IMG/VR virus record: IMGVR_UViG_3300045988_035499 | Reading direction: 5' to 3' (one strand) | From: a virus | Length of the DNA stretch: 64,000 nt | Shown: positions 34,224-58,232 of the stretch, one piece after another | Position numbering within the stretch: the first letter of the stretch is position 1 | How the letters are laid out: each line of letters starts with the position of its first letter | Notes under the pieces: model-generated | What the model was told of the DNA's origin: nothing | Databases searched by the model: none | The model's input: only the letters and a program-made list of their open reading frames with translations | Position numbers and translations under genes: made by a program

Positions 34224-34327
34224 AGGGAGAGGAAGGACTCGAACCTTCAAACCCAAGAGCTTTATTAACGACGACTTTAGGGCGCTTCCGTCAATCTACT
34301 GCCGTATACCTATTCCGCCACTCTCCC
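34224..34327 (-). ncRNA. 104-nt tRNA-like element without a canonical anticodon arm
   Basis: GGGAGAG/CTCTCCC acceptor, a tRNA-Leu-like D region (TGGCGGAATAGGTATACGG) and a GAAGG-TTCGAGT-CCTTC T arm. The centre folds only as GACGG-13 nt-TCGTC; that loop contains CCCUAAA. Confidence 0.4.
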
Positions 34328-40322: not shown

Positions 40323-40907
40323 ATGAAGTGCAATGTAACAAACTTTATTAAAGTGGAGAGAGAGAACGAAATGCCGTACTTTATTATTAAAGCAACGGGA
40401 GTCGAAGGTGATGAAAGTGCAAACGTAGTGGACGATGACGGATGTATTAATCCGTTTGCTATGATGTCGAGGCGTTTTAATTTCACAAAAACACTTTTTC
40501 CGTCAACGGACAAACAAGTAGAGCAATTAGAAAAGCTTTATGAGGTGGATGAGGACGGGAAAGTAGTTAAGGGTGCACCGATACGGCTAATGTCGGTCTC
40601 TTGGGCAACAGGAACAGAATTTTATATTAAAAAAGAAGGTTCTGTTACGGGAGTTTATGAGACAGAAGAAGAAGTAACGGAAAAGATAGTGCGTAACGGT
40701 AAGACTATCGAAGTTACTAAGACTAAGTATGCGCCGAAAGTGTTTAAAAGTGTCAATTTAACACTCTTTGAAAATGCGGACGGTACATGCGCCGAAAACG
40801 GTGGGAATGCGGATGCCTTATGCAAAAGAACGTTTGAGCGTGGACTTGAATCAGGTGCTTATATTCCGTGCGAAACTGCACCCGATATCACTGAGGTAAT
40901 CGCTTAA
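40323..40907 (+). CDS. hypothetical early protein
   Basis: 194-aa ORF with an ATG start (alternative ATG at 40371). Looks noticeably GC-richer than its neighbours. Followed by a terminator. Confidence 0.55.
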   Translation: MKCNVTNFIKVERENEMPYFIIKATGVEGDESANVVDDDGCINPFAMMSRRFNFTKTLFPSTDKQVEQLEKLYEVDEDGKVVKGAPIRLMSVSWATGTEFYIKKEGSVTGVYETEEEVTEKIVRNGKTIEVTKTKYAPKVFKSVNLTLFENADGTCAENGGNADALCKRTFERGLESGAYIPCETAPDITEVIA

Positions 40908-40935
40908 TATATAGCGGTTCTATCCAACAAACACT

Positions 40936-40965
40936 GCCTACAACTATGTAGGCTTTGTTTGCTTT
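40936..40965 (+). terminator. intrinsic terminator
   Basis: GCCTACA-acta-TGTAGGC followed by TTTGTTTGCTTT. Confidence 0.65.
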
Positions 40966-41003
40966 GCAAACCAACATTTATTATCAACATAACAACTTTG
41001 CCT

Positions 41004-41150
41004 ATGTATTCATTAATACACGGACTAATAAACATTATATCTGCCCTATTTTGTTATTACATTATAGGAGGGATTAATGGTGTAATCTTTTATCTCACCT
41101 TTAATGTGTTTCACATTCTATATCTTACCTTAAGATTAGATGATGAGTAA
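41004..41150 (+). CDS. small hydrophobic protein (hypothetical)
   Basis: ATG at 41004 inside track ORF 40959..41150. Two predicted TM helices. Confidence 0.3.
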   Translation: MYSLIHGLINIISALFCYYIIGGINGVIFYLTFNVFHILYLTLRLDDE

Positions 41151-41159
41151 GAGAACAAG

Positions 41160-41620
41160 TAAGTCTTAAGACTCGCAATAGTGCATGAGCGTTAGATGGC
41201 ACTTACGTTTAGATGTGGTAGTGTATAAAAACCACTCTAGTTCGAGCATACTATAAAAAGCTCATCTTGAAAAAACTCAATAACTTCGGAGTAGCGTAAG
41301 CTACGGAGTTGTGTAACAATCCCAAGACATTGAGGGCACCAGTTCTTTCATTCTTTCGTGGGAATACTACATGATTACAGTAGTATATTAGCGAAAAGGT
41401 AATCGTAATTGAATGAAAGTTTAATTGTAGAATTAGCTACTCTACAATTTAGTGAACGTTAGTGACGTTGTAATATAATTAGTCTTTAGAAGGACTATAT
41501 TACATTACTAAATAACTCCTCATCTTATTCTAGATATGTAAGATGAGGGCTATCGTATCTGTAGATACCTGATGAGTCTTTGAAAATTAAGACGAAATAG
41601 CAATTATTAACCAAATAAAC
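41160..41620 (+). ncRNA. ORF-free hairpin-dense island 1
   Basis: GTAA-capped stem GTAGC/GCTAC, 10-bp stem cctcatctta/taagatgagg (41518-41548), GTATC-TGTA-GATAC. Stops in all frames. Confidence 0.4.
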
Positions 41621-41626
41621 AACAAT

Positions 41627-41728
41627 ATGAAAGCAAACAATCAAGACATCGAATTCAAGATATGCACAGCATTAGCTATAGCTATGATAATAGCAAGTAT
41701 TGTTTGCTATCATATCTTTAATATTTAG
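41627..41728 (+). CDS. 33-aa hydrophobic peptide (hypothetical)
   Basis: ATG 41627, ends in TAG 41726-41728. Confidence 0.25.
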   Translation: MKANNQDIEFKICTALAIAMIIASIVCYHIFNI

Positions 41729-41732
41729 CGTT

Positions 41733-41969
41733 ATGGAAATAACTAAAACATTGTACAATTTATTAGGTAAAGAAGTAATAGTAGAATACTCTAATAAAAA
41801 AGTTCTTACTACAATAAGTATAATAGAGAACAATGAAGGAGTAATAACCTTCGTACTATCAAATGGTGATAAAATAGCATTAGATACAATAAGTTCAATT
41901 GTACATAATAATAGTACTACAACTATTACTTACAATGATGAAGGACTGATTGTATTTAAAATAGTCTAA
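41733..41969 (+). CDS. hypothetical protein
   Basis: ATG at 41733 within track ORF 41700..41969. Confidence 0.45.
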   Translation: MEITKTLYNLLGKEVIVEYSNKKVLTTISIIENNEGVITFVLSNGDKIALDTISSIVHNNSTTTITYNDEGLIVFKIV

Positions 41970-41974
41970 GAAAA

Positions 41975-42665
41975 CTTCAAAAACAGATTTATTCGCAAAG
42001 TAATTATTCTATGAAATGCAAATTAACTTCTAGTGTTGTGAAACACACAATCCACGTTTTAATTATAATAGTATAAGTTAGGTATGCCCTTATAAAGACT
42101 TAGGTAACGCTAAGGACTATACTATTATAATTCTCTTCTTAATGCAGCTAATATAGCAGTGACAAGCCTGTCTAATCGTCATAGAGACGTGAATGCAGAG
42201 TCAAGAAAACATAATCTTATTTACTATGCACAAGTAAATACAGATTATGAATCCACGTGGAAGGAAGATAGGTACAGTTGTAGGTTCCAGCTGAGTGCAT
42301 ACCTGATTAAGCAACCAAGCGAAAGTAAGTATAGCAAAATTAAGTCGTAGCGTTACGGCTTTACTTTAACAAATGAGTCCTGAACACTCATATAACGTAC
42401 TTACTGGTCTGACACTAACCAAAAATAAGTGTCACTCTTATATCTGAAACAGTTCTATAGATATAGGTAAGATTAGAAGAACATAGGTAGAAATCCTTTT
42501 AAAGGCACTTAGGCTAAGTGTAATATAGCCTGATAATAGAGTAAGAGAAAATGAGACGAGAATATCACCGTAGCTCTTAGCATAGCTTATAGTCATATAA
42601 CGTAACAGTTGACTATATTAATGCGCTTACTCTATTATTTTTATTGCATTAACTAACAAATAAAT
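41975..42665 (+). ncRNA. ORF-free hairpin-dense island 2
   Basis: Perfect 15-bp closing stem 42061-42075 / 42118-42132. Perfect 13-bp closing stem 42533-42545 / 42626-42638 followed by a T5 run. Confidence 0.45.
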
Positions 42666-42672
42666 CAATTAT

Positions 42673-42882
42673 ATGGAAACAAAAGTAGTACTAATAATCA
42701 CTGTTCATCTAATGCTGGGTATACTTGGATCTATACTTTTTCTTAAAGATATATATAGAACATACGGAGAGTTAACATTAGGCGATATATTAACGTTCTT
42801 AATAATTGCTCTTACAGGACCAATTACTCTACTAGCTTTATTAACAAAATATCTTGATAGATTTAAAATACTAAAAAAGTAA
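42673..42882 (+). CDS. small two-TM membrane protein
   Basis: Intact 69-aa ORF with an ATG start. Confidence 0.5.
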   Translation: METKVVLIITVHLMLGILGSILFLKDIYRTYGELTLGDILTFLIIALTGPITLLALLTKYLDRFKILKK

Positions 42883-43250
42883 CTAATAAATCATGTAAAT
42901 TAGAATCTTATTAATAAGTTAATGCAGTAAATATTACTGCATCTATACTGTGAGAATCAGTATCAACTTTGTGGGGCTTATATTTAGACAATGTGTGATA
43001 ATAGTTGCAAATATTATTATATAATCTAATATTAGTGCAGATGAAATCAAAGATAGTTCGTATTTGCGGTATTGCGGGATACGAACAAGTCAAGTCATTA
43101 TAAGACTGGGTAGCGTGATACAAAAAATCCTAGCTGACCTGTAGCTAGGTATCTTTAAGGTGAGAATCCTTGACAATCCTGTGGGGCTCATATCTTTAGC
43201 TGTCCATTCAACTTGCGCTGTAGTTGAAATCGGCAACCAGCAAAGTATTA

Positions 43251-43268
43251 GTGCAGACGTTAAAATCA
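43251..43268 (+). repeat. 18-nt motif GTGCAGACGTTAAAATCA, copy 1
   Basis: Identical to 45284-45301. A degenerate copy is at 43036-43049. Confidence 0.8.
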
Positions 43269-43432
43269 GGAACAACTACATCATTCCTAACAATATTATT
43301 AGTCATAAGCTTAACAACAATACGATGTAGCCAAGTATGCCCGTCTTTAGTATCTAACAAAACTACGTTTTGCCTGTTTTTGCTGTATTATTTTTAGCAA
43401 TTCATTCCAAATGACTAGTGTGTCATTACTAA

Positions 43433-43458
43433 TATACTTATCTGTGAAGATAGGTATA
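43433..43458 (+). repeat. 26-nt hairpin TATACTTATCT-GTGA-AGATAGGTATA, copy 1
   Basis: 11-bp stem with a GNRA loop. The copy at 45158-45183 differs by one A-to-G change that keeps pairing (A-U to G-U). Confidence 0.8.
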
Positions 43459-43588
43459 TTAGTTGCACTCATAAGGTAGCCTTCACGTGGCGAGTGTGTA
43501 AGTAGTAGGTTTAAAAAAGAAATCCAGTTTGTTTGCCTATGAAACTAATACCTTTATTTAATAGTATTAATCAATAATATATAATAGT

Positions 43589-43861
43589 ATGAAAAAGAAA
43601 GAATTATCTAAAAGACATCAAATAATTGTATATATGAATATACATTTACTTGAATTCCTTCTAAAAAGGCACTTACTAACTAATTTTATAGATGAAGCAG
43701 TTAGACAATCAAAGTGGCATATACCAGTATATAGAGAAGAACAAAAGTATTGTTATTTTTGTGAATTCTTTTCATGGACTAAATCAAAAAGAGGTTGCAA
43801 ATATTGGGCAACAATAGATTCAGATTTTGACATTTATTTATATAATCTAAAAACAGCATGA
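43589..43861 (+). CDS. hypothetical protein, tandem paralog A
   Basis: KRHQIIVYMN..LLEFLLKRHLL and W.KSKRGCKYW parallel the next ORF. Confidence 0.5.
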   Translation: MKKKELSKRHQIIVYMNIHLLEFLLKRHLLTNFIDEAVRQSKWHIPVYREEQKYCYFCEFFSWTKSKRGCKYWATIDSDFDIYLYNLKTA

Positions 43862-44103
43862 AAAAAATCAAAAGACATCGGTTCGTGATTAATCTACCTT
43901 CAACTTTACTACTTTTTCTTATTAAAGAAAGAGTATTAAGTAAATTTATATCTAATACTGTAGACTTTTTTTCTGGAAAAGGAAAAGGATTTATTTTAAT
44001 ACCTGATTTAGCCGAAAGTTACTTTGAATGGGAGAGCACTAAAGAGGGTCATAAATACTGGGAAGACTTAATTAATAAATATTATGAACAATATGATGAA
44101 TAA
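43858..44103 (+). CDS. hypothetical protein, tandem paralog B
   Basis: KRHRFVINLP..LLLFLIKERVL and WESTKEGHKYW. ATGA overlap with paralog A. Confidence 0.5.
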   Translation: MKKIKRHRFVINLPSTLLLFLIKERVLSKFISNTVDFFSGKGKGFILIPDLAESYFEWESTKEGHKYWEDLINKYYEQYDE

Positions 44104-44368
44104 AATTAGTAAGTATATTCTAGTAATTATACTTATTATTGTAATAGCTTACACTATTATAAAATGCATTCCTGAACATCCTATATACAATTTTGTAGAT
44201 TTACAAATGAAGTATAAGAGGTATCTATTAGTAGATAAATATGTAGAAAACTTTAGTGATTCTTACGTATTTATACTGAAAAATCCAGTTACTAATCAAA
44301 ACAATAGAGTATATGTAAAAGATTACTTATACACTAATGTATATTTCGTTGGAGATACTATTAAATAA
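44084..44368 (+). CDS. membrane-anchored hypothetical protein
   Basis: N-terminal TM segment (YILVIILIIVIAYTII). Confidence 0.45.
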   Translation: MNNMMNKISKYILVIILIIVIAYTIIKCIPEHPIYNFVDLQMKYKRYLLVDKYVENFSDSYVFILKNPVTNQNNRVYVKDYLYTNVYFVGDTIK

Positions 44369-44483
44369 CAATTATGAAAAGAGAAGATATCAAGCAGAAT
44401 ATCTAAAAACTAACTTTGCTGACCTATTACTTAACTGGTTTGAAAAGTAATTATATTATTAACTATTAAACGTTTATCAAAAA

Positions 44484-44669
44484 ATGAAGAAAAGTTTTAT
44501 TTTACATTCCGCAGTAGACGGTACTGAACTTTTAGTGCCAAGAGACTCCTTAGACTACGCTTACGTAGATGACGATAATAACACTATTGCTGTTATTTTG
44601 TCTAACGAATTTGCGGTTACTGAATCTATGGCTGAAATAGCCGATAACTTAGAAGAAATGGAGGACTAA
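44484..44669 (+). CDS. small acidic hypothetical protein
   Basis: Intact 61-aa ORF. Confidence 0.4.
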   Translation: MKKSFILHSAVDGTELLVPRDSLDYAYVDDDNNTIAVILSNEFAVTESMAEIADNLEEMED

Positions 44670-44671
44670 AA

Positions 44672-45124
44672 ATGGAAAATGAACTAATGAAAATGCCTAA
44701 GTCATCTAATAAAGTATGGATATGGGCACTGCTGTTTATTGCTATTTTAGCAGTCGCAGCGACTGTAATCTATCTCGATCGTGAGAAGATTTCAAGACTT
44801 TTTAACTCTGAGAAGAGTACTGAGCTACAAAAAACTGATATTGCAGAGGATTATGTTCCTACAATACAGGAAACTCTACAAATGAGGGAACAAATGAAAT
44901 GGAATCAGCATGTTGACAGTGTATTTCTTACAATGCCAGAGGTAGTTCTAACTGATATTTTGATTAATCATGGTACAAGTATGTCTATAGAAGACATAGT
45001 TACTATATATGAATCAAACAAGAACTGCTACAATAGTGTTCTAAGTGGTGCACGATCGCAACAATATATTGATTCTATAAATGAAAAACGAGAAGAAAGA
45101 GATACAATTAGTATTTCTCATTAG
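44672..45124 (+). CDS. membrane-anchored hypothetical protein
   Basis: N-terminal TM segment (VWIWALLFIAILAVAATVIYL). Confidence 0.5.
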   Translation: MENELMKMPKSSNKVWIWALLFIAILAVAATVIYLDREKISRLFNSEKSTELQKTDIAEDYVPTIQETLQMREQMKWNQHVDSVFLTMPEVVLTDILINHGTSMSIEDIVTIYESNKNCYNSVLSGARSQQYIDSINEKREERDTISISH

Positions 45125-45157
45125 CGTAACCTCCTAATAAGTTAATATTAGGTTAAC

Positions 45158-45183
45158 TATACTTGTCTGTGAAGATAGGTATA
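45158..45183 (+). repeat. 26-nt GTGA-capped hairpin, copy 2
   Basis: See 43433-43458. Confidence 0.8.
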
Positions 45184-45283
45184 GTCTTCAGAAAATGACA
45201 AACATGTGGGGCGTAAGAAATTCTATATCTATAATCCATTCTGTTTAAGTTATAGATGAAAGTAACAGAAAAGAATTTTGATC

Positions 45284-45301
45284 GTGCAGACGTTAAAATC
45301 A
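45284..45301 (+). repeat. 18-nt motif GTGCAGACGTTAAAATCA, copy 2
   Basis: See 43251-43268. Confidence 0.8.
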
Positions 45302-45542
45302 TGTACTCCAATAAGGATGGTTTGACAGCTATTCCTGCTTATGAGTTAAAACTATAGTGAGAGTCAGAATATATTAGGTAAGAGAAAACAAGTGAATACT
45401 ATTTATCTTATTAACATGTTTTACAACAAAAGTGGCTAAAAGAGTTTAGCAAAAGTCTGATACTTAGACTTAAAACACAAATCCAAAAGTATCTTGGTCG
45501 TCGTCAATAATTATTAACTAACAATTTAAGATTATGTAAAAA

Positions 45543-45788
45543 ATGAAAGGAAAACGGTATTTGACTGAAATCACATTTAAAACAGATCACTTTTTAGCTA
45601 ATTTATTAGCAGTAAGAAGTTTCTGTGGTATTACTCCACTATCTAAAGCTAAAGAATTAGTTAATCAAGGTAGAAATGGGGTGACTGTAAACAATCTTCA
45701 TTTAGAATTAAATACTAAATTATCTACAGATGACTTAGTAGCTAAGCTAGATGAATATGAAATATACATTAAAATAACTAATCAATAG
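45543..45788 (+). CDS. hypothetical protein
   Basis: Intact 81-aa ORF terminated by TAG (45786-45788). Confidence 0.5.
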   Translation: MKGKRYLTEITFKTDHFLANLLAVRSFCGITPLSKAKELVNQGRNGVTVNNLHLELNTKLSTDDLVAKLDEYEIYIKITNQ

Positions 45789-45796
45789 TAAAAAAA

Positions 45797-46303
45797 ATGA
45801 AAGCAATTATTATCGTATTTGATGGAGAGTATTTACCTGAATATGGTGGACAGGATGCACTCTGCGCTAAATTAGTTAAGACATTTAGCGCACGCTCTAA
45901 TGGCGTAGAAGTACCTAATAGAAAAGTAAAAGTTGTTACTATGACTGACTCTGATATAGAGAAGTTATTAGTATTAAATACTTTAACTAAAACAGAAGGT
46001 ATAAGTTGTGCTACAATTAATCAATCTGTAAAAATAGCAGATATAATTGATGATTTCTGTAAAAAGGTATTAGCTATTGTAGGTAGTAGAGTATTACTTG
46101 GGGAAAGTACCTTTAAACAGGCTTTTGTTATTAATCTGATTAATAAAGATGAACTACGTAAGCATCCTGCAGTACCGTATATTGCAGAGATAACAGATGA
46201 AAAGATATATCTTGATAGACGTAATCAGCTAAATAGCTATAAATACGGCTGTCTACCAGAGTATATTAACATAGTTCACAATAGTATATGTAAACTCTAC
46301 TAA
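45797..46303 (+). CDS. hypothetical protein
   Basis: Intact 168-aa ORF. Confidence 0.5.
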   Translation: MKAIIIVFDGEYLPEYGGQDALCAKLVKTFSARSNGVEVPNRKVKVVTMTDSDIEKLLVLNTLTKTEGISCATINQSVKIADIIDDFCKKVLAIVGSRVLLGESTFKQAFVINLINKDELRKHPAVPYIAEITDEKIYLDRRNQLNSYKYGCLPEYINIVHNSICKLY

Positions 46304-46304
46304 T

Positions 46305-46403
46305 ATGGCAAAGACAGATAAGGAAGAAAAACCGAAAGACTTCAAGAAGAGGCCTAAACATAAAAAAATGGAGCCTTATAGCCGCACTAAAGCATGGAAA
46401 TAA
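46305..46403 (+). CDS. 32-aa basic peptide (hypothetical)
   Basis: ATG 46305, TAA 46401-46403. Confidence 0.25.
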   Translation: MAKTDKEEKPKDFKKRPKHKKMEPYSRTKAWK

Positions 46404-46543
46404 TTGAACAACAATGTCCTACACGTGATAATAAAATTGCCTGTAGTGAATGCCCTCATGAGTGTAAACTCAGAATGGAACCAAAGAACAGTACGTCAAC
46501 AGAGATTCCGCCAGAGTCTCTGCCAACTGTTATATATTACTAA
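46394..46543 (+). CDS. 49-aa Cys-rich peptide (hypothetical)
   Basis: ATG 46394. MEIIEQQCPTRDNKIACSECPHECK. A better candidate than the overlapping TTG-initiated track ORF 46404..46619. Confidence 0.3.
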   Translation: MEIIEQQCPTRDNKIACSECPHECKLRMEPKNSTSTEIPPESLPTVIYY

Positions 46544-46768
46544 TTTTAATTTGTTAGTAACATGGTGGATTCAGTCAACCAAAGGATTACTTAAAGCCAG
46601 AACCCTAATGGAAGCTTAGTACTACTAAGCTACTAAGCAAGAGTACAAAGGACTATACAACGGTCAACCTAGCAATAGGTCAGGAGAAGGACGTGGGCTG
46701 TCTGCGAATAAGAAGTACAAATAAGCAGAGTAATTCTTTTAAATTTAAATCATTAAATATCAAGTTAT

Positions 46769-47056
46769 ATGACAAAAACAAAAAGAATAAAACAATTAAA
46801 AGCAGCTATATCTACAGGACTATTAAGTATAATAGATACAAAGTACTGTGAAAAAGAAATTGCTAAATTAGAAAAGCAATTAAAAGCTGAAGAACAACGA
46901 ATTCATATTTTTCTTATGAAATGTTCTGAAAATTCATTAAAGCGTAAAGAAGCTTATGAAAACAGAAAATTGATAAAAGCAGGAGAAAGAGAAAGTTATC
47001 GTCAACGTAAAATAAGACTTAATAAAGAAAGAAGAGATTCTTTAAATAAGTATTAA
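46769..47056 (+). CDS. basic coiled-coil hypothetical protein
   Basis: Intact 95-aa ORF. Confidence 0.5.
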   Translation: MTKTKRIKQLKAAISTGLLSIIDTKYCEKEIAKLEKQLKAEEQRIHIFLMKCSENSLKRKEAYENRKLIKAGERESYRQRKIRLNKERRDSLNKY

Positions 47057-47057
47057 A

Positions 47058-47285
47058 ATGGCATATTACTATACTCAAATAAATATAGCTCCTACTGAAG
47101 ATATAGATAGAAGAGCTGAAGCATTAGCATATTTTCACAATATGAATATTGCAGATGCACTATTAATGTGTAGTAAAAATAAATGGAAAAGTATTAAAGT
47201 CAAAGTTAAATACATAGCTAAAGCTGTAGTATATGCTAGATATAGATACTTTTCTGATTGTGACTTTATAGAAATAATTCCATAG
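47058..47285 (+). CDS. hypothetical protein
   Basis: Intact 75-aa ORF terminated by TAG. Confidence 0.45.
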   Translation: MAYYYTQINIAPTEDIDRRAEALAYFHNMNIADALLMCSKNKWKSIKVKVKYIAKAVVYARYRYFSDCDFIEIIP

Positions 47286-47328
47286 AGTTAATTAATATAT
47301 TTTTTAATCATTAAAACTGTAATCAAAA

Positions 47329-47799
47329 ATGGCAGAAAAAGAAAAAATGAACATCCTCACAACTGAGGATATCAATGGAGAAAATATCCAAGAGGTTATC
47401 TCCAATTCAAGTAAGGTAACGGAAGATATTGCAACGAAAGCAGCAGAAAAGATTGCTGAGCGTCGTAAAGAGAAACTTACGAACGACCTTATTGAAGTTG
47501 TACAGAAGTGCGAATATACAGTATCGGCTGCGGTACTGCAAGTTCGTCGCTCTAATCGTACAAACCAACGTATCAAAAGCTATCTGAAGTCTTTGTCAGA
47601 ACTAGCTGAAGATGTCAAGAGCGGAAAGAAACCTGTAACAGCATGGGACAAAGAAGCTCGTGAGATGAAGAAGCAGTTTGACAAAGACTTGATTGAAATT
47701 GGAAAGAGTATCGATGAATCTCTTCGTGAGCTGAACGAAATCTTCCCGAATTCATGGCAATGGCGATACGGAGAATTAGTTCCTGGAAACAAAAATTAA
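47329..47799 (+). CDS. hypothetical protein
   Basis: Intact 156-aa ORF that looks GC-richer by eye. Three antisense track ORFs are shadows. Confidence 0.55.
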   Translation: MAEKEKMNILTTEDINGENIQEVISNSSKVTEDIATKAAEKIAERRKEKLTNDLIEVVQKCEYTVSAAVLQVRRSNRTNQRIKSYLKSLSELAEDVKSGKKPVTAWDKEAREMKKQFDKDLIEIGKSIDESLRELNEIFPNSWQWRYGELVPGNKN

Positions 47800-47828
47800 T
47801 TCTCAAATTAAAAGAGACACCAGAGTTA

Positions 47829-47841
47829 GAATCTTTGAATC
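47829..47841 (+). repeat. 13-mer GAATCTTTGAATC, copy 1
   Basis: Exact copies at 47920-47932, 48055-48067 and 53840-53852. Confidence 0.85.
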
Positions 47842-47919
47842 AATACTCTTAGTGAGGGGCGGTTGGGCTTTTGCCGGGGATACCAGCGCACACGGACCTG
47901 AATTAACAGGTCACATATG

Positions 47920-47932
47920 GAATCTTTGAATC
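47920..47932 (+). repeat. 13-mer GAATCTTTGAATC, copy 2
   Basis: Exact repeat. Confidence 0.85.
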
Positions 47933-48054
47933 AATTATGTGGTGTTACAATGAACTACTGATCATAAGTCTGAGATCGCGACAATAAGATTGTCCCGCAT
48001 TAGTAATAATGCTGAAACGCTTTAGTCGTGATATCAAGTCAGACAGATATTTGT

Positions 48055-48067: not shown

Positions 48068-48194
48068 TTATAGAACTAAGTAACGAGTTTGAGAATGTTC
48101 TATATCAGATATCGTTAGTATTATCAAGATCAGTAATAGAGATTAACCATCTCAAGACCATAGGGTATATGACTTTGGTCGGTCATATACCCAC

Positions 48195-48254
48195 ATTGAC
48201 TGCTAGGTCTATGAATCAGTCGTATGGACGAGGGTTTGATCCCCTCCAGCTCCA
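48195..48254 (+). ncRNA. tmRNA-like acceptor piece (3' half of a tRNA-like domain)
   Basis: GGACGAGGGTTTGATCCCCTCCAGCTCCA: T arm GAGGG-TTTGATC-CCCTC (48230-48246), acceptor 3' strand CAGCTCC (48247-48253), discriminator A. Closely resembles bacterial ssrA 3' ends as I recall them. Confidence 0.5.
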
Positions 48255-48382
48255 CAACAAGTGCTAAAGGATGTGGGTGAGACTCCCTTAAGTGCTCGCG
48301 AGATAGTAATTGCTTGAGCTGCCTGATAACGGCTAGGATAATTTAGAAGCTTCGTTCTAGCTGGCACTTTATTACATTACAA

Positions 48383-48520
48383 GGGGCTGAATGAATTTGA
48401 CAGCGACAATGTGAAGTAGAATAGGTCAATAAGCAGATAACTGGCAACACAAGTTATGTAACAGATTACACTCGCTTAGTAGCGTAAGTAATCTAACGGC
48501 TAAGCTAATGTCGTAAAAAG
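48383..48520 (+). ncRNA. tmRNA-like coding piece (5' acceptor strand plus candidate tag frame)
   Basis: GGGGCTGAATGAATTTGACAGCG starts at 48383. GGGGCTG pairs with the upstream CAGCTCC. GCGAC/GTCGT and GTCAAT/ATTGAC give P2-like pairing. A frame from GGC 48443 encodes GNTSYVTDYTRLVA and stops at TAA 48485. Confidence 0.45.
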
Positions 48521-48524
48521 CTGG

Positions 48525-48599
48525 AGTAAGTAAGCTTTGCATGGTAGTGAAGCCTTGGGTTTTACCAAGAGATAAGGAGTTCGAGTCTCCTACTTACTA
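48525..48599 (+). ncRNA. tRNA-like element with a 6-nt anticodon loop
   Basis: AGTAAGT/ACTTACT acceptor, GCTT/AAGC D stem, AGGAG-TTCGAGT-CTCCT T arm. The anticodon arm is CTTGG-GTTTTA-CCAAG (six-nt loop, no position 26). Confidence 0.4.
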
Positions 48600-48635
48600 C
48601 AACTAAATTAAATTTAATCAATAAATTAATTTGAA

Positions 48636-50954: not shown

Positions 50955-52505
50955 ATGGAAAAAGAAATGACTAAAGCAGAAAGAAAAGCTGCTTTGAAAG
51001 CTGCAAAGAAAGCAGCTAAGGAAGAGAAGAAGGCTGCAATCGCTAATGGCGGTAACGATAAGCCTGAAGTTAAAACTGAGACTAAGAAAGCTGAGGATAC
51101 TCAGCAAGTAGCTGCACAGACAGTAACTAATGAAACTTCTGCAAAGAAGGGAGAGACTAAGAAGGAAGAAAAGCCTCAAGCCACCCAGAAAGAGCAGAAG
51201 AAAGAGGAAAAAGCTCCTTCTAAGAAAAAGGAACCAAAGATTCCCACAATTATTCCTGAAGATGCATCTAAGGATGTAAAGAAGGATCCTGCAGAAGTTG
51301 CAATTAAACGTGCTACTTCCTTAGTAAATGCAGTTGACAATGTAGGAATTCCTATAGGGTCTACATCCTCATCTCTTGATGGTAAAGCGATGTTATCTTT
51401 CGTAATGCAACAGCGTTATGCAAATAACAAAGAATTAGCTGAACGCTATCCAGAAATGTATGCTGACATTAATCGTAACATTGATGTTGTGACATTGTTA
51501 GCACTTGTAGATGTCCGTCAGGATTTGTTTAATCGTGGAGAGAAAGGTGAACTCGAACTTCAGATTGATGCAAATCAAATCATGCCGCTACAAAGTATGG
51601 CAGAAATGCTAGGAATTAAACTAGCTCCTGCTAAAGCTCTGCCTGGAAACGATAAACAGTTGTCTATCGATTTTACAAAATCTGAAGTACCTAATGAGCT
51701 TTCTAAAGATGCAGGTACGTCTTCTATTAAAGAAGAAAAGGTTGAGCTTGATCCGAACAAGATCACTTCTGATGATATGGTAAATTCTGCCTTAGAACAT
51801 ATCATCAAAAACGGAAAGAATATGGCAGAAAACATCGTTAACATCGTAGAATGGTATCGTACTTATTGCATTACTAAAGAAGAAAATGCAGATAAGAAAC
51901 TGGCTCTTGATGACAGAACTACAGCTGAATGGCTGGAAGAGATCTTCACAAGAATTAAACCAGTTAGCTTATTACAAGGTCTTGGTCGTGCAGTATATCT
52001 GTATACTTCTCAAACAGGCTCTCCGTGTAGTGCTCATGCAATCTTGCATACACACATGTCTAAAGCTGGTTGGTCTGAAGAACAGATTGCAAGTACGCTA
52101 AAAGCTCTTATTGGAGAGAACTTCCGCTATAAGCTAAAGGATGACAATACATTGAAACCGACGGAAGACAAGGCATTAAATGCTATTGTTGGTAATCTTG
52201 GTACTGAATATATCGACAAGATATTTGCCGACTATAATCTCAGTAATGAGACTATTAACAGTGCAGAAGAGAGTAAGAAATCTGAACTTGAGAACAATCG
52301 TTCAACAGCTCGAAAAGTCTTAGGTATTCTTCGTACTAATTACTTCCCGAAGGAACATAAACCTACTGATGCAGAATTGCGAATGGTAGTAGGTCAGATT
52401 ATTAATCTGTATCGTAATCCAGCAGATCGTCTCGCAGAATACTGCGGAGAGTCAATCAGCAGTCCTAAGGAAAGCGAATTTCCAACAAGTGAAAAAAAAA
52501 ATTAA
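50955..52505 (+). CDS. hypothetical 516-aa protein with a Lys/Ala/Glu-rich N-terminal tract
   Basis: Intact ORF that looks GC-richer by eye. Antisense track ORFs are shadows. Confidence 0.55.
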   Translation: MEKEMTKAERKAALKAAKKAAKEEKKAAIANGGNDKPEVKTETKKAEDTQQVAAQTVTNETSAKKGETKKEEKPQATQKEQKKEEKAPSKKKEPKIPTIIPEDASKDVKKDPAEVAIKRATSLVNAVDNVGIPIGSTSSSLDGKAMLSFVMQQRYANNKELAERYPEMYADINRNIDVVTLLALVDVRQDLFNRGEKGELELQIDANQIMPLQSMAEMLGIKLAPAKALPGNDKQLSIDFTKSEVPNELSKDAGTSSIKEEKVELDPNKITSDDMVNSALEHIIKNGKNMAENIVNIVEWYRTYCITKEENADKKLALDDRTTAEWLEEIFTRIKPVSLLQGLGRAVYLYTSQTGSPCSAHAILHTHMSKAGWSEEQIASTLKALIGENFRYKLKDDNTLKPTEDKALNAIVGNLGTEYIDKIFADYNLSNETINSAEESKKSELENNRSTARKVLGILRTNYFPKEHKPTDAELRMVVGQIINLYRNPADRLAEYCGESISSPKESEFPTSEKKN

Positions 52506-52572: not shown

Positions 52573-52977
52573 ATGAATTCTAGAGTATTATCGATTGTTA
52601 GCATGTTTATGGCTAGTGTTCTCATTGGCTATAACTTGCTACCAACGAACACATTACAGGCACAACCACCTGTATTTCCTTCTGTAATAGAACTACCTAG
52701 TATAGCTAGAACTATTCCACAAGAAGTGAAGAAGTCTGTGCAAGAGATAGATGTTGAAATAGATCTATCTACTAACGAAGTATCTGTAAAAGGAACAACA
52801 GACGCAATTGTGAATGTTAAGACTACTAATGAGCCAAAACCTATAGTAAAATATAAAACTATAGTAAAAGAGGTAGAGGTCAAATCTACTGGATATCCAT
52901 ATGTAAAAAGTGTGGGTAAAGTTCCAGAAGGTACTACACCTATTTCTCCATTAAAAACTATTAGTAGTAATGAGTAA
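52573..52977 (+). CDS. secreted or membrane-anchored hypothetical protein
   Basis: N-terminal signal/TM-like segment LSIVSMFMASVLIGY. Confidence 0.45.
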   Translation: MNSRVLSIVSMFMASVLIGYNLLPTNTLQAQPPVFPSVIELPSIARTIPQEVKKSVQEIDVEIDLSTNEVSVKGTTDAIVNVKTTNEPKPIVKYKTIVKEVEVKSTGYPYVKSVGKVPEGTTPISPLKTISSNE

Positions 52978-53398
52978 TAAGAATCGCATTATTCTTAAGC
53001 AAATGGTTAGATTATCTACCATTTTAGCTGACCTTATATCTGCAAAACGTAGTATCAATAAGGTTCAAGAACAAGCAGCTTATTTCATTGTACAAGGTGA
53101 AAGTTCTAATTTCTTAGAGGTTAGATTAAAGGCTGCAGAAGCAGATTGCTTATGCTTAGCTCAGTACTTACGTTTGTCTGTAAGTAATTGTTGTAGTAAA
53201 TTGGATGGTTTTGATCCTAGTAGAATGGATCCGCTCGAGTATATCAGTAGTAATGAAATACGAAATAGATGCGCAACTATTTGTCGAGGTACTAAAGAAA
53301 TAGCTATTATTAATTTAGTAACAGGAGAAGTTCAACAGATAGAACCAGATTTACAAAAAAATACGGCTGAAGAGAAAAGTCCTGCGGAAAAAAGTTAA
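52970..53398 (+). CDS. hypothetical protein
   Basis: Intact 142-aa ORF. Confidence 0.5.
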   Translation: MSNKNRIILKQMVRLSTILADLISAKRSINKVQEQAAYFIVQGESSNFLEVRLKAAEADCLCLAQYLRLSVSNCCSKLDGFDPSRMDPLEYISSNEIRNRCATICRGTKEIAIINLVTGEVQQIEPDLQKNTAEEKSPAEKS

Positions 53399-53399
53399 C

Positions 53400-55490
53400 A
53401 GTAATAGCCGCAATATAAATACTATAATTATACTGTAGTTCGAGAGGAGTAAAACTGTAGCGTAAATCACTCCGGTAGTTATAATTGGGAAGTCATACCG
53501 CTACGTCAGGAAGTTTGTGTTCATTAACGCATAGTCCGAAATAGACAGAATCCGAGAATATGTTAGCAGCTACAACTGTGAGATACCCAAAAGGTAGGAT
53601 ACTAGCTTACATACTTGAAAACTATGTAAGAGGAGGTTAGAGTGTACAACCTTCATTAGGCATTGAGAACCGTTTTGGTGAATGCTAAAGACTCGTAGGA
53701 GGAACAATTTAATCCAAATACAAACAGTACAAGGGGAACGAAATCCTCTATAATTACTCGTGTTAGACTATCACAGTCAGAATCAAGTAGGAGTATAAAC
53801 AACGATGACGCAATAGGGACAATCGGGTTCCTAGCCTTAGAATCTTTGAATCAGCTCCTTTGGAAAGAGCAGGCGAAACATTCTAAAAAACTAGGTAATT
53901 GCTACCAACCTGCGGGGTCCAAACTCGCAGTAGAACAAAATCGTGTAGCCGCGCGAGCTGATTGCGAAGACGGACAAAAGGGCTAATCTACAGTGTTCAG
54001 TACACATCAGCTGTGATGCAATATAATAAACATTGGAACTTGTACTTATGAAGGTAGATAAAACAACTGATACTAATGTAAGGGTAACCGTGTTATGGTA
54101 CATACTTATACAAAGTAAGGATATGAAAGCTGGAAACGCAATGATCCGAATGAGTGAAGCGAGAGCGGAACCATGACATTCGACTGATTATCGTGGAGCA
54201 GGAGCCAATCCTGTGCATTATCGTAAATAGTGTGCTGCAAAAGAACTTACGTATAAGGAATGAGGTATATGAGATTGATACCGCCTTTCAAGTCTGAAGT
54301 GACTCACGTGCTTAGTCGTTCGTGTGAGTATAATTGAATGAGGAATGACTGGACAAAGAATGTCCATGCGGTTTGAGGGCGCTATAACCCTGATTCTAAG
54401 AGGATAGAGACCTTTAGCAAGTCTTAATTAATTATCCAGAAATGTATTGAGGTGAAGCTTAGAGAACACCTTCTAAAAAACAGCAGAGCTTATACGTTTT
54501 AAGATATGTAAACGTCTTTGTTTAAGATATAAACTCAACCAGAGTTGAAGATTAAACATCGTAGTAACTAAAAAACTAACAAAGTAATAAGACCTATACA
54601 GGATGCTATGAGGATAGCATCTCATAACCAGCTGATATGTTTAAAGTATGTGAGGATATACTTTATTAACTGATGTACTTATGCCTAATAGAATGGGCTA
54701 TTGGAAAAATGTATTCTAAATTGTTTAACATTTAATAATTGGGAAGTTCAATGATAGGTCAGACGCATAGCAGCTTACGTTGTATGTAAGCAATGAAGAG
54801 TCCAAGTCACCCCGACTGCCAACCGTTACGCTGACATAGACACTCGTAAAGTATATAGCAGCAACTATATATGTACTGAGAACGCTGAATCCGAAAAGTA
54901 AGCCTACACACTAATAAGGTCGTTATTAGTCGAGCAATGCTAATATGCAGAGCGCTAGTAGAAAGGGAGCTAAGTAAGATGATAGGTGGAAATCCTAGTA
55001 TTCGTGCAGTATAAACAACAAATCCTATGCATGGTATGAGTGGGTCATGCTATAAGCAATGAGCTCATGAGTTTGGTAACGCTTAGAATAAAGCGACCGT
55101 TATTCAATAGAATATCGACAATATACGGAAATGCCTTGTAGGTCTATCGTAGACTGATGATAAGCGCTGTTTATAATGCAACTAATCGCGTTATGAACTT
55201 ACGTTGAGAGGTGCATTAAGCATCGTAAAAGTTGAATCTTAATCGTCGACACGGGACGTTAAAACCATAAATATCAGAAATTATCAGAAGTAAAATTCAC
55301 AGAATTTTTCTCATAAATTTAACCGTTTATTTTCAGCATGCCGAGTAGATTATGTGATTGAGTTCACTACTGACATTATTTCAGTAACATAAATAATCGA
55401 AAAGGCGGAGAGCATTAACACAGTATTAATTAAAGAATAAACCAAATGGTTCGTATTGGTATATCAAGTACGGACTCAGAAAGGAAACAT
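53400..55490 (+). ncRNA. about 2.1-kb ORF-free, GC-enriched structured region (large ncRNA candidate or candidates)
   Basis: The only track ORF is one 70-aa antisense ORF. Many local hairpins. Two internal units open with ATAATTGGGAAGT (53481, 54735) and close with AGTATAAACAAC (53792, 55008). Contains the fourth GAATCTTTGAATC copy. Confidence 0.5.
53840..53852 (+). repeat. 13-mer GAATCTTTGAATC, copy 4
   Basis: Exact repeat, 5.8 kb from copies 1-3. Confidence 0.85.
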
Positions 55491-55494
55491 TTGT

Positions 55495-56133
55495 ATGGAA
55501 AATAATAATTCTATTGGAGTAACTGTAGGTATCGGTACTCCATCAATTGAGAGTCAAGTCATGGCTCGGTATCGTCAGACTGCAAAGCAGTACGGTCGTT
55601 ATTTTGGAGAGCAGATTTTTACAGTGATCTCTACAAATCCTGATCTTAAATGGAAACAGGATGTACTTGATAATAAAAATACATTACGGCAAGAAGTACG
55701 TGTATTCATTATCAAGCCTATTGATATAACAGGTGTAGAATTATTAGCTAAAGATCTTGATGGTCAGCCAAAGATTGTCTTGAATCCGAAAGCTAACGAT
55801 CCTAACCTTGTATTCCCGTTAGTAGCTCCTGAGTTTACGAAAGCAAACCGGGCAACTGTAACGGAATGTATTGAACGTATTGGTAAGGCTGGTAGTAAGC
55901 CAATGTTCTTCTCTGCAGAGGAATTGCCTACTCTTAATGAGTTGCTAAAATTGCATAATTTTGGTGTTGTCAATTTCTACGAAGAACAGTCTCGTAAGTA
56001 TATGAAACTTTCAGAAACTGTACGGGATATGATTGAACAAGGTGAACGCGCTCAGATCGAATATGCACGGCAGTGTGGAGTAGATCAGAACGAAACTGAA
56101 GTTCACGTTCAAGTGAAACTTGAAGAAGCGTAA
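55495..56133 (+). CDS. hypothetical protein
   Basis: ATG at 55495 (MENNNSIGV) within track ORF 55456..56133. Confidence 0.55.
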   Translation: MENNNSIGVTVGIGTPSIESQVMARYRQTAKQYGRYFGEQIFTVISTNPDLKWKQDVLDNKNTLRQEVRVFIIKPIDITGVELLAKDLDGQPKIVLNPKANDPNLVFPLVAPEFTKANRATVTECIERIGKAGSKPMFFSAEELPTLNELLKLHNFGVVNFYEEQSRKYMKLSETVRDMIEQGERAQIEYARQCGVDQNETEVHVQVKLEEA

Positions 56134-56138
56134 GCATC

Positions 56139-56693
56139 ATGAATAGCAGAATTTCATCTTTACGGATCGAGCTTCTGCGAATACTAATTTGCTCTGAACC
56201 AACCATATTGTCTAAAGTTCAGATTTGGAACGGAGGACATTCAGAGCCCGCAAAAAAAGTATCAATTAGAGAAGATGGATCGGTCTTCTTCTATTATGGT
56301 AGTGGGCCGTTGTGGTGGCAAAGACTTTTTAATACTTATGAATCGGTAAGTATTATTGATGCTGCAATTCGTATAGCAGATGCTATAACAGGTTCTAATG
56401 GAACTCGTAATGAAATAGCTTTTGATAGTATTACTAAAAGTATTCTTGATGAGGCAATAAAGAAACGTGATTTCGATTGCGTAGTAGATATTCTATTTGA
56501 TAGTATGCGGAATTGTTCGGACGGAGAATTACATTCTAGATATATCAATCAGGAAAATATTAGAAAATACGCAAAAGAAAATGGACTCACTGGTAAAATC
56601 ATGATGGATGGAAATCTATATGGTTATGCTGGTATTAAAACACCCGATGGACGAGTAATTCCTATTAAACTCGGTCGGATTACAGAACAATAG
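56139..56693 (+). CDS. hypothetical protein
   Basis: Intact 184-aa ORF terminated by TAG (56691-56693). Confidence 0.55.
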   Translation: MNSRISSLRIELLRILICSEPTILSKVQIWNGGHSEPAKKVSIREDGSVFFYYGSGPLWWQRLFNTYESVSIIDAAIRIADAITGSNGTRNEIAFDSITKSILDEAIKKRDFDCVVDILFDSMRNCSDGELHSRYINQENIRKYAKENGLTGKIMMDGNLYGYAGIKTPDGRVIPIKLGRITEQ

Positions 56694-58141: not shown

Positions 58142-58212
58142 TCCTATATAGCTCAGTTGGTAGAGCCGCTAGTAATAGTGTGATTGCGCTGGTTCGAGTC
58201 CAGCTATAGGAT
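58142..58212 (+). ncRNA. tRNA-like element whose anticodon loop is replaced by a GUAA tetraloop
   Basis: TCCTATA TA GCTC AGTTGGTA GAGC, then CGCTA-GTAA-TAGTG, then TGATTGC GCTGG TTCGAGT CCAGC TATAGGA T. Perfect acceptor, D and T arms, but only 21 nt where 22-23 are needed. Confidence 0.45.
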
Positions 58213-58232
58213 CTAATTTTAACTTTATTAAT

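Follow-up and report, generated by a model that had tools for sequence, protein, structure and literature searches.

A conserved two-kilobase block in crAss-like phages of the Suoliviridae as a probable locus of large structured non-coding RNA

The block and its conservation

The DNA analyzed here, a 64,000-nucleotide (nt) stretch from a virus (IMG/VR record IMGVR_UViG_3300045988_035499; the whole stretch is called the window), comes from a crAss-like phage (Crassvirales, Suoliviridae, Loutivirinae), and thus from a virus family that ranks with the most abundant ones in the human gut. Our subject is a block at 53399..55494 on the plus strand, which lies between the stop codon (53396-53398) of a gene for a 142-amino-acid (aa) protein and the ATG (55495) of a gene for a 212-aa protein, upstream of the DNA polymerase region and among genes that are all on the plus strand. 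A preliminary description, made from the letters of the window, had seen here a GC-enriched, hairpin-dense block free of open reading frames (ORFs) and had suggested one or more large structured RNAs; as a whole, this observation was partly confirmed by the analysis reported below.

No ORF longer than 70 aa was present in any frame of the block. The plus-strand frames carry 51-62 stop codons each, of all three kinds, the minus-strand frames 32-46, and the longest stop-free run in the six frames (98 codons) is at the level of shuffled sequences (93.7 ± 19). At most 193 codons are opened by the reassignment of a single codon, whichever stop is chosen. Both the ORF-free character of the block and the statement that no single reassignment opens a frame therefore stood. 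The GC content is 0.378, compared with a window mean of 0.337, and corresponds to the 97th percentile among 2.1-kilobase (kb) windows; the enrichment that had been described is thus real, but modest in size. ARAGORN found neither tRNA nor transfer-messenger RNA (tmRNA) inside the block, and a scan of the block for sigma-70 promoters and intrinsic terminators gave no enrichment, no clear promoter and no terminator-like site, with none of these signals between modules.

No Rfam 15 model matched the block in cmscan searches, either at the gathering threshold over the window, at E ≤ 10 over 53200-55700, or in nine related loci. This negative result covers GOLLD, ROOL and HEARO/omega RNA, which had been put forward as models to be included, as well as OLE, raiA, RNase P, tmRNA, signal recognition particle (SRP) RNA and ribosomal RNA (rRNA). 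Self-cleaving ribozymes and RAGATH motifs (Hatchet, hammerhead, twister, pistol) were likewise absent from 53200-55700 at E ≤ 10; the same type of scan returned at least ten ribozyme/RAGATH motifs at 41287-47977. For a group II intron there was no Rfam match, no reverse-transcriptase ORF and no Pfam domain in the neighbours, and for a group I intron no match to the catalytic core (RF00028). The flanking ORFs are independent, the upstream one ending with its own stop at 53396-53398 and the downstream one having its Shine-Dalgarno sequence and ATG at 55480-55497. The earlier statement that the block is of no known family, being neither rRNA, RNase P, SRP RNA nor a group II intron, was upheld by these scans.

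The block is matched at 68-75% nt identity, in the same place, in eight Loutivirinae crAss-like phages, with gaps of 2037-2152 nt and the gene order sigma-factor-like gene, ~500-aa gene, ~134-aa gene, 142-aa gene, gap, 212-aa gene, 184-aa gene and tRNA-Arg. The same gap precedes the same gene pair in the Bearivirinae phage cr6_1, in the Oafivirinae phages cr131_1, cr130_1, cr7_1 and cr272_1, and in a Bohxovirus from a respiratory sample; across all related lineages it measures 1.98-2.4 kb and is collinear. When IMG/VR, metagenomes and GTDB genomes were scanned with patterns and then searched with a profile, 176 full-length collinear copies were recovered, which form 22 clusters at 92% identity. 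All of these copies lie on phage contigs of roughly 100 kb, and their sources are samples from human, macaque, pig, rabbit and hare; the lemur-derived phage Dulem virus 42 gave a partial blastn match only. Every lineage shows a single collinear profile match, in which modules are never lost, duplicated or shuffled down to ~45% identity. The two most diverged lineages (L048 and L243; profile scores of 56-86 bits) have a 2.1-2.4-kb ORF-free gap followed by ORFs sized like the downstream pair. The block is syntenic and length-conserved over at least three Suoliviridae subfamilies, and conservation in crAss-like relatives had been named beforehand as one check on the RNA proposal.

Conservation of the block exceeds that of its surroundings. 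Among 13 Loutivirinae lineages the mean pairwise identity is 0.743 in the block versus 0.635 and 0.634 in the upstream and downstream coding DNA, respectively (flank controls of 2.1 kb upstream and 1.2 kb downstream), and the adjacent protein is merely 44-68% identical between relatives. The autocorrelation of column variability decays smoothly in the block (0.44, 0.34, 0.30, 0.23 and so on) and peaks at lags 3 and 6 in the flanks; no 3-nt substitution periodicity was detected in the block, whereas both coding flanks show it. Near-invariant cores (54060-54400) alternate with variable or lineage-specific inserts (53465-53545, 54895-54975). Selection on the block acts at the nucleic-acid and not at the protein level.

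Two full copies of the block carry bacterial labels in GTDB, namely L194 (CANRPB010000001.1, 98,653 nt; 'uncultured Bacilli bacterium') and L195 (MSGT01000071.1, 100,100 nt; 'Sphaerochaeta sp.'). These sole 'bacterial genome' matches, whose length is that of a crAss-like phage genome, are probably phage contigs mis-binned into metagenome-assembled genomes. A reverse-strand 'hypothetical protein' is annotated in the homologous gap of the RefSeq/GenBank records of cr109_1, cr113_1, cr7_1 and Bohxovirus (L003 4468-4905, L005 4466-4903, L284 2579-3061 and L286 2793-3299); these annotations are probably spurious, since the window and most relatives are without such an ORF.

Base pairing, strand and elements

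A structure derived from Loutivirinae only was found to be 62% paired in Bearivirinae and 53% paired in Oafivirinae, compared with 35-41% when the partners were slid. In held-out clades, pair combinations that were absent from the training set and had changed on both sides kept the pair in 63 of 99 cases in the block versus 45 of 128 and 24 of 56 in the coding flanks (Fisher p = 3e-5), and slid controls kept it in 25-38% of cases. A strict all-against-all scan, in which a run needed 4 or more contiguous pairs, canonical pairing of 92% or more and two Watson-Crick types in each of 2 or more pairs, gave 13 antiparallel local covarying runs versus 1 in a parallel (impossible) null, and 9 versus 0 at a stricter cut-off; fifteen helices passed when the scan was slightly relaxed. 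Counting of pairs in the region 54736-55030 showed 94.7% pairing versus 82.4% after shuffling, with 14 double-change pairs versus 6.7 ± 1.3 (0/500 shuffles) and versus 1-7 when slid. Base pairing in the block is maintained by compensatory change above coding-flank and null controls, and the covariation in relatives that the preliminary description had proposed to look for is present. The loops ACGAAA, GCCAA, AUGAGAUUG, UAGC, AGA and UGGAAAU are unchanged across all Loutivirinae and their stems covary; a further invariant loop of the predicted transcript is CGCNAUAA.

The plus strand is moderately favoured. The alifold energy is -507 for this strand versus -482 for the minus strand, G-U exceeds A-C among the strand-neutral pairs (159 vs 111, p = 0.004), the unpaired bases are 41% A and 11% C, and the neighbouring genes all lie on this strand. 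Because covarying helices start before the upstream stop codon and no terminator-like site was found, the block would be co-transcribed with its flanking genes.

The elements of the block and the genes that adjoin it are listed in Table 1. Both stems that had been singled out in the preliminary description are present: GATGCTAT-gagg-ATAGCATC (at ~54600) is kept by compensatory change in relatives, and CTGCG..CGCAG (arms 53911-53916/53924-53929) covaries in them.

Table 1. Elements of the block and adjoining genes, in window coordinates (bp, base pairs).
Feature	Position	Strand	Remarks
Gene for 142-aa protein	52970..53398	+	Always adjoins the block in the Loutivirinae records examined
Hairpin TGCGG/CCGCA	53383..53412 (arms 53383-53387/53408-53412)	+	5 bp, 3 compensatory pairs; spans the upstream gene stop
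Helix ACAGTA/TACTGT	53398..53436 (arms 53398-53403/53431-53436)	+	6 bp, 4 covarying pairs
Near-invariant AAATACTATAATTATA box with TATAAT	53417-53432	+	Loop of helix 53398..53436; kept in Loutivirinae, CTATAAT also in Bearivirinae; may be a promoter-like box or an RNA loop
Hairpin GGAGT/ACTCC	53446..53473	+	Invariant in Loutivirinae; Bearivirinae has ATCTAA/TTAGAT instead
Covarying hairpin	53510..53537	+	GTGT/ACGC, GTAG/CTAC, AGAG/CTCT or GTAT/ATAC by lineage
Helix around a hairpin, then 8-bp hairpin	53550..53630 (helix 53550-53553/53597-53600, hairpins 53566-53579 and 53606-53630)	+	Pairs kept in Bearivirinae and Oafivirinae (cB 0.97-1.0)
Hairpin GGGA-ACGAAA-TCCT, then helix around a hairpin	53734..53795 (helix 53755-53759/53791-53795, inner hairpin 53766-53778)	+	Invariant loop; best-conserved part between subfamilies (H9/H10, 84% identity to cr6_1)
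Motif AGTATAAACAAC, copy 1	53792..53803	+	Helix 3' arm and A-rich linker
Covarying hairpins	53814..53929 (53814-53833, 53834-53874, 53911-53929)	+	Last is the CTGCG..CGCAG stem
Most conserved core	54060..54400	+	80-94% column identity in Loutivirinae; nested helices 54077-54290
Core hairpins with invariant loops	54198-54214, 54264-54282, 54376-54391	+	GCAGGA-GCCAA-TCCTGT, GGTAT-ATGAGATTG-ATACC and AGGG-CGCNATAA-CCCT, in this order
Covarying hairpin GAGAC/GTCTT	54407..54425	+	Invariant loop core TAGC
Hairpin GATGCTAT-gagg-ATAGCATC	54604..54630	+	Variable region; 8 bp, 5 compensatory
Domain opening with conserved AAnTGGGAAGTTCAATG	54735..54820	+	GGG 54741-54743 pairs with CCC ~54811-54813; inner hairpin 54773-54790
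Medium-range helix CTGC/GCAG	54816..55009 (arms 54816-54819/55006-55009)	+	All pairs 100% kept, 2 with double change; encloses the next three features
Hairpin	54851-54872		7/7 pairs covary; GTATATAG/CTATATAT, CAATG/CATTG, CGTTTAC/ATAAACG or ATGGAC/ATCCAT around a (C/A/U)GCAA loop
Variable insert	54895-54975		Absent in Bearivirinae
Hairpin TAGG-TGGAAAT-CCTA	54983-54997		Stem TAGG/CCTA, AGGG/CCCA, GAGG/CCTC or AAGG/CCTT around invariant UGGAAAU
Motif AGTATAAACAAC, copy 2	55008..55019	+	Kept across subfamilies as CAGWATAAA
3' covarying hairpins	55036..55258 (55036-55068, 55080-55095, 55166-55202, 55215-55243, 55244-55258)	+	55166-55202 has 11 bp, 8-9 compensatory
A/T-rich stretch	55273..55330	+	Direct repeats TATCAGAA at 55273-55280 and 55283-55290, a third, TCACAGAA, at 55298-55305; conserved CTCATAAATTT; may act as operator or promoter of the genes downstream
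Probable leader of the downstream gene	55354..55494	+	Hairpins 55354-55367, 55368-55386 (5/6 pairs covary) and 55450-55474 (conserved); Shine-Dalgarno-like AGAAAGGAAA; ATG 55495
Downstream gene pair (212 aa and 184 aa)	55495..56693	+	Adjoins the block in 21/21 related lineage representatives

The conserved structure starts inside the end of the upstream gene, since the hairpin 53383..53412 spans its stop codon. The 5' arm of the following helix sits in the loop of this hairpin, and the interlocked helices at 53383-53436 may therefore be an H-type pseudoknot, or else a pair of alternative folds open to disturbance by a ribosome terminating there. Most pairs of the 54060..54400 core never vary, so that covariation cannot test them. 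At the other end, the TATCAGAA repeats and a conserved hairpin immediately ahead of the Shine-Dalgarno sequence give the last 230 nt the look of an operator and leader for the downstream pair.

Two sub-units of about 300 nt with shared opening and closing motifs had been proposed within the block. The motifs are indeed exact repeats, a 13-mer ATAATTGGGAAGT (53481, 54735) and a 12-mer AGTATAAACAAC (53792, 55008), for which ~0.09 and ~0.33 pairs, respectively, are expected by chance. The opening motif is conserved only at 54735, its 53481 copy being limited to the closest relatives of the window, and the A-rich linker motif of the closing repeat, AGUAUAAAC, is conserved at both sites. The sub-units themselves are not homologous by profile search: sliding 200-nt profiles gave scraps only (E = 0.002 and E = 1.4), and internal duplication was rejected.

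Interpretation and alternatives

On the comparative evidence we give a probability of roughly 0.8 to the reading that the block is a locus of non-coding RNA conserved among the crAss-like phages of the Suoliviridae. Its length, order and base pairing are kept family-wide and it matches no known family, and therefore it most likely specifies one folded RNA of very large size or several smaller ones in a row, as had been proposed. The locus is real, strongly constrained and characteristic of Suoliviridae, and it apparently represents an undescribed family of large structured phage non-coding RNA. No prior description of the block was found in a literature search whose coverage was incomplete, so that it may be described elsewhere; the main crAss-like comparative genomics paper, in both its versions, does not mention non-coding regions, and no cultured Suoliviridae were found in the literature searched. 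That the block is transcribed, from which strand, as a single molecule and with which protein partners, and what its role is, are points that we infer.

In our working model the block would be read on the plus strand together with the surrounding rightward genes, and the transcript would fold into dozens of stem-loops whose stems compensate and many of whose loops are invariant. The RNA itself would be the product, most likely one long multi-domain scaffold of ~1.85 kb (roughly 53400-55260), and the downstream gene pair would have its promoter/operator and leader in the last 230 nt. Tertiary contacts or protein binding might be the task of the invariant loops, and the proteins encoded by the invariably linked flanking genes are the candidate partners. 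Such a scaffold RNA or ribonucleoprotein would be made in the early or replication phase.

Several results weigh against this reading. RNAalifold predicted 418 pairs in 28 sequences, 154 of them with double-sided change, and the same pipeline gave 118 'compensatory' pairs in 2.1 kb of flanking coding DNA; the raw counts (149-154 compensatory pairs) thus overstate the signal and were dropped as evidence, and the hold-out and null-controlled tests were relied on instead. Helices spanning more than 250 nt show no excess over the parallel null (3 vs 4). Per-pair counts are mixed for the 5'-3' closing stem and the long-range domain-closing helices that RNAalifold predicts, and these were set aside as unsupported. 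Single-sequence folding is not above chance, with minimum free energy z-scores of -0.23 (53399-54398) and -2.0 (54399-55398) versus -3.3 in a coding control (51399-52398); these scores were uninformative as a structure signal, and the term 'hairpin-dense' of the preliminary description did not hold in this sense. The strand signal is modest (1.4:1), and the neighbouring proteins have no detectable RNA-binding fold.

As support is confined to local helices, none of them above 250 nt, the locus may specify one multi-domain RNA or a co-transcribed string of modules. We favour, tentatively and with more doubt than confidence, a single ~1.9-kb RNA at ~53400-55260, which would form a multi-domain particle (alone, as an oligomer or with adjacent-gene products) required in the early or replication phase. 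Rigid collinearity, a constant length over deep divergence and the lack of internal ribozyme, promoter or terminator signals speak for a single unit. The same facts bear on the possible, if rather doubtful, reading of the block as an array of independent small structured RNAs of 100-300 nt each, cut from one precursor, which would be comparable to the upstream ribozyme/RAGATH array. Statistical support for local helices only, with weak long-range closing helices, is what such an array would look like; a known ribozyme/RAGATH array lies on the same strand of the same genome, 7-12 kb upstream, and the conserved A-rich linker AGUAUAAAC, which occurs twice, could mark unit boundaries. The array is opposed by the failure of any self-cleaving ribozyme or RAGATH model to match within the block even at E ≤ 10, by the missing promoter and terminator signals between modules, and by a module order and total length that stay rigid, in a single collinear profile match per lineage, down to ~45% identity.

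We consider it unlikely that the block is mainly a cis-acting element, that is, a very long leader or regulatory region of the 212-aa/184-aa operon or a 3' untranslated region of the upstream operon. The regulatory look of the 3' 230 nt (TATCAGAA repeats, a hairpin before the Shine-Dalgarno sequence), the invariable linkage to the downstream pair and the start of structure at the upstream stop codon would fit this explanation, but constraint extends over the whole 2 kb and is strongest in mid-block (54060-54400), far from both genes. Moreover, we know of no phage leader of ~2 kb composed of dozens of conserved hairpins with invariant loops.

An element acting as DNA, be it an origin of replication or a site of packaging or recombination with single-stranded-DNA hairpins, is very improbable, even though the block lies upstream of the DNA polymerase region and the strand preference of its wobble pairs is merely modest. 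Iterons and long repeats are absent from the block, which has only short 11-16-nt two-copy repeats, and the cumulative GC skew rises monotonically through it without inflection, so that a replication origin is unlikely; the excess of G-U over A-C, the A-rich unpaired regions and the GNRA-like and other invariant loops are hallmarks of RNA. To our knowledge, no origin looks like a 2-kb series of hairpins that covary.

It is hardly credible that recoding, splicing or frameshifting conceals a protein gene here, or that the block is what remains of a decayed mobile intron or homing endonuclease. Delta-group crAss-like phages do reassign stop codons and carry group I introns (PMC7886860), and the upstream gene of one relative has an in-frame stop. 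Against this, all three stops abound in six frames with no single reassignment opening one, the 3-nt periodicity of both flanks is missing, no group I or II intron matches, each flanking ORF is a complete gene with signals of its own (stop, Shine-Dalgarno sequence, start), and the block is more conserved than its neighbours rather than decaying. A spliced or recoded gene, which the preliminary description had named as a refuting discovery, is excluded, as far as sequence can tell, by the stop counts, the limit on reassignment and the lack of periodicity.

Among known RNAs, GOLLD and ROOL are large, ornate, multi-hairpin RNAs of phages and prophages with conserved loops and lie near tRNA genes; the block, predicted to be such an RNA, has a tRNA-Arg 1.3 kb downstream and, as they were, has been recognised by comparative analysis alone. 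It differs from them in matching neither sequence nor structure model, in its size (~2 kb versus ~600-800 nt) and in its occurrence in crAss-like phages of Bacteroidota-rich guts, theirs being Lactobacillales or rumen phages. Assembly into homo-oligomeric RNA-only cages has been seen for GOLLD and ROOL by electron cryomicroscopy (PMC12286853); the block is known here from sequence. Like the 1.5-3-kb multi-domain rRNAs and group II introns, it is of similar size, with many local helices and A-rich unpaired regions, but it has no Rfam match, no reverse-transcriptase ORF and no supported long-range domain-closing helices. OLE and raiA are large bacterial non-coding RNAs that work with dedicated proteins. 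The block resembles them as a large ornate RNA, on our reading, tightly linked to conserved uncharacterised genes whose products are candidate partners; OLE and raiA are, however, cellular and not viral, their models do not match, and the proteins linked to the block have no recognisable fold or domain. RAGATH-type motifs are conserved structured RNAs of unexplained role in gut-phage DNA, and were reportedly described together with Hatchet, hammerhead and twister ribozymes by Weinberg et al. in 2015. These elements (RF02678, RF02686, RF03159, RF03146) form an array on the same genome and strand, in the same early/middle region, but none of their models matches 53399-55494, and they are separable motifs of 100-250 nt whereas the block is a rigidly collinear 2-kb unit.

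If the block gives one ~1.9-kb RNA, no structured non-ribosomal RNA known from a phage would be larger, and GOLLD would be less than half its size; the ornate phage RNAs would then reach sizes far above those of GOLLD and ROOL, and the block would be a target for studies of the use of giant RNAs to viruses. An array would instead add a set of new motifs to the RAGATH/ribozyme arrays, as yet unexplained, that these genomes carry. In both cases the block offers an alignable family of over 170 sequences from at least five deep lineages for covariation models and tests.

Neighbouring proteins and other features of the window

Searches of Pfam and PHROGs gave no match for seven neighbouring proteins, and the downstream pair has no Pfam, PHROG or PDB relative; searches for homologous proteins yielded almost nothing beyond one clade. 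A similarity of the 212-aa protein to L7Ae/Snu13 (kink-turn binding) was rejected, as the PDB profile went from E = 0.3 with 7 sequences to E = 0.035 with 18 and was gone with 42; Foldseek matched its AlphaFold2 model (predicted local distance difference test score, pLDDT, 74) to nothing in the PDB (best E = 0.2, template-modelling score < 0.2). An FtsJ-like methyltransferase hint for the 184-aa protein (E = 0.6) was lost with the profile. The Bearivirinae counterpart of the upstream gene (L009 3295-3762) has an in-frame stop when read in the standard code; this points to recoding in the lineage's early genes as well.

The window carries further RNA candidates upstream of the block. On the plus strand between 41287 and 47977 we found a dense array of known motifs, namely RAGATH-14 (41287-41521), hammerhead III (41547-41603), RAGATH-6 (41986-42135), a weak twister-P1 (42136-42206), RAGATH-7 (42210-42434), three Hatchet motifs (42941-43052, 43151-43271 and 45184-45304), RAGATH-9 (46571-46740) and a weak RAGATH-20 (47895-47977). 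The stretch 40907-43589 (~2.7 kb) is likewise poor in ORFs and is the second such block of the window. Loutivirinae crAss-like phages appear to be a natural home of RAGATH/ribozyme orphan motifs. At 48162-48600 (plus strand) ARAGORN called a permuted tmRNA with the tag peptide GNTSYVTDYTRLVA, overlapped by an odd tRNA-like call at 48529-48600; Rfam tmRNA_permuted scored 45.5 bits there, against a gathering threshold of 47 (E = 1e-6). A phage-encoded two-piece tmRNA is possible at this site.

In the leftward (late) half of the window, at 1-40000 on the minus strand, the ORFs are short and fragmented, with many gaps. By analogy, such fragmentation would be expected if the late genes use a reassigned stop codon, as in delta-group crAss-like phages (PMC7886860). 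Unusual tRNA calls were obtained at 58142-58213, where the anticodon is unclear, and at 34224-34327 (104 nt, possibly with an intron), and either of them could be a suppressor for a reassigned stop.

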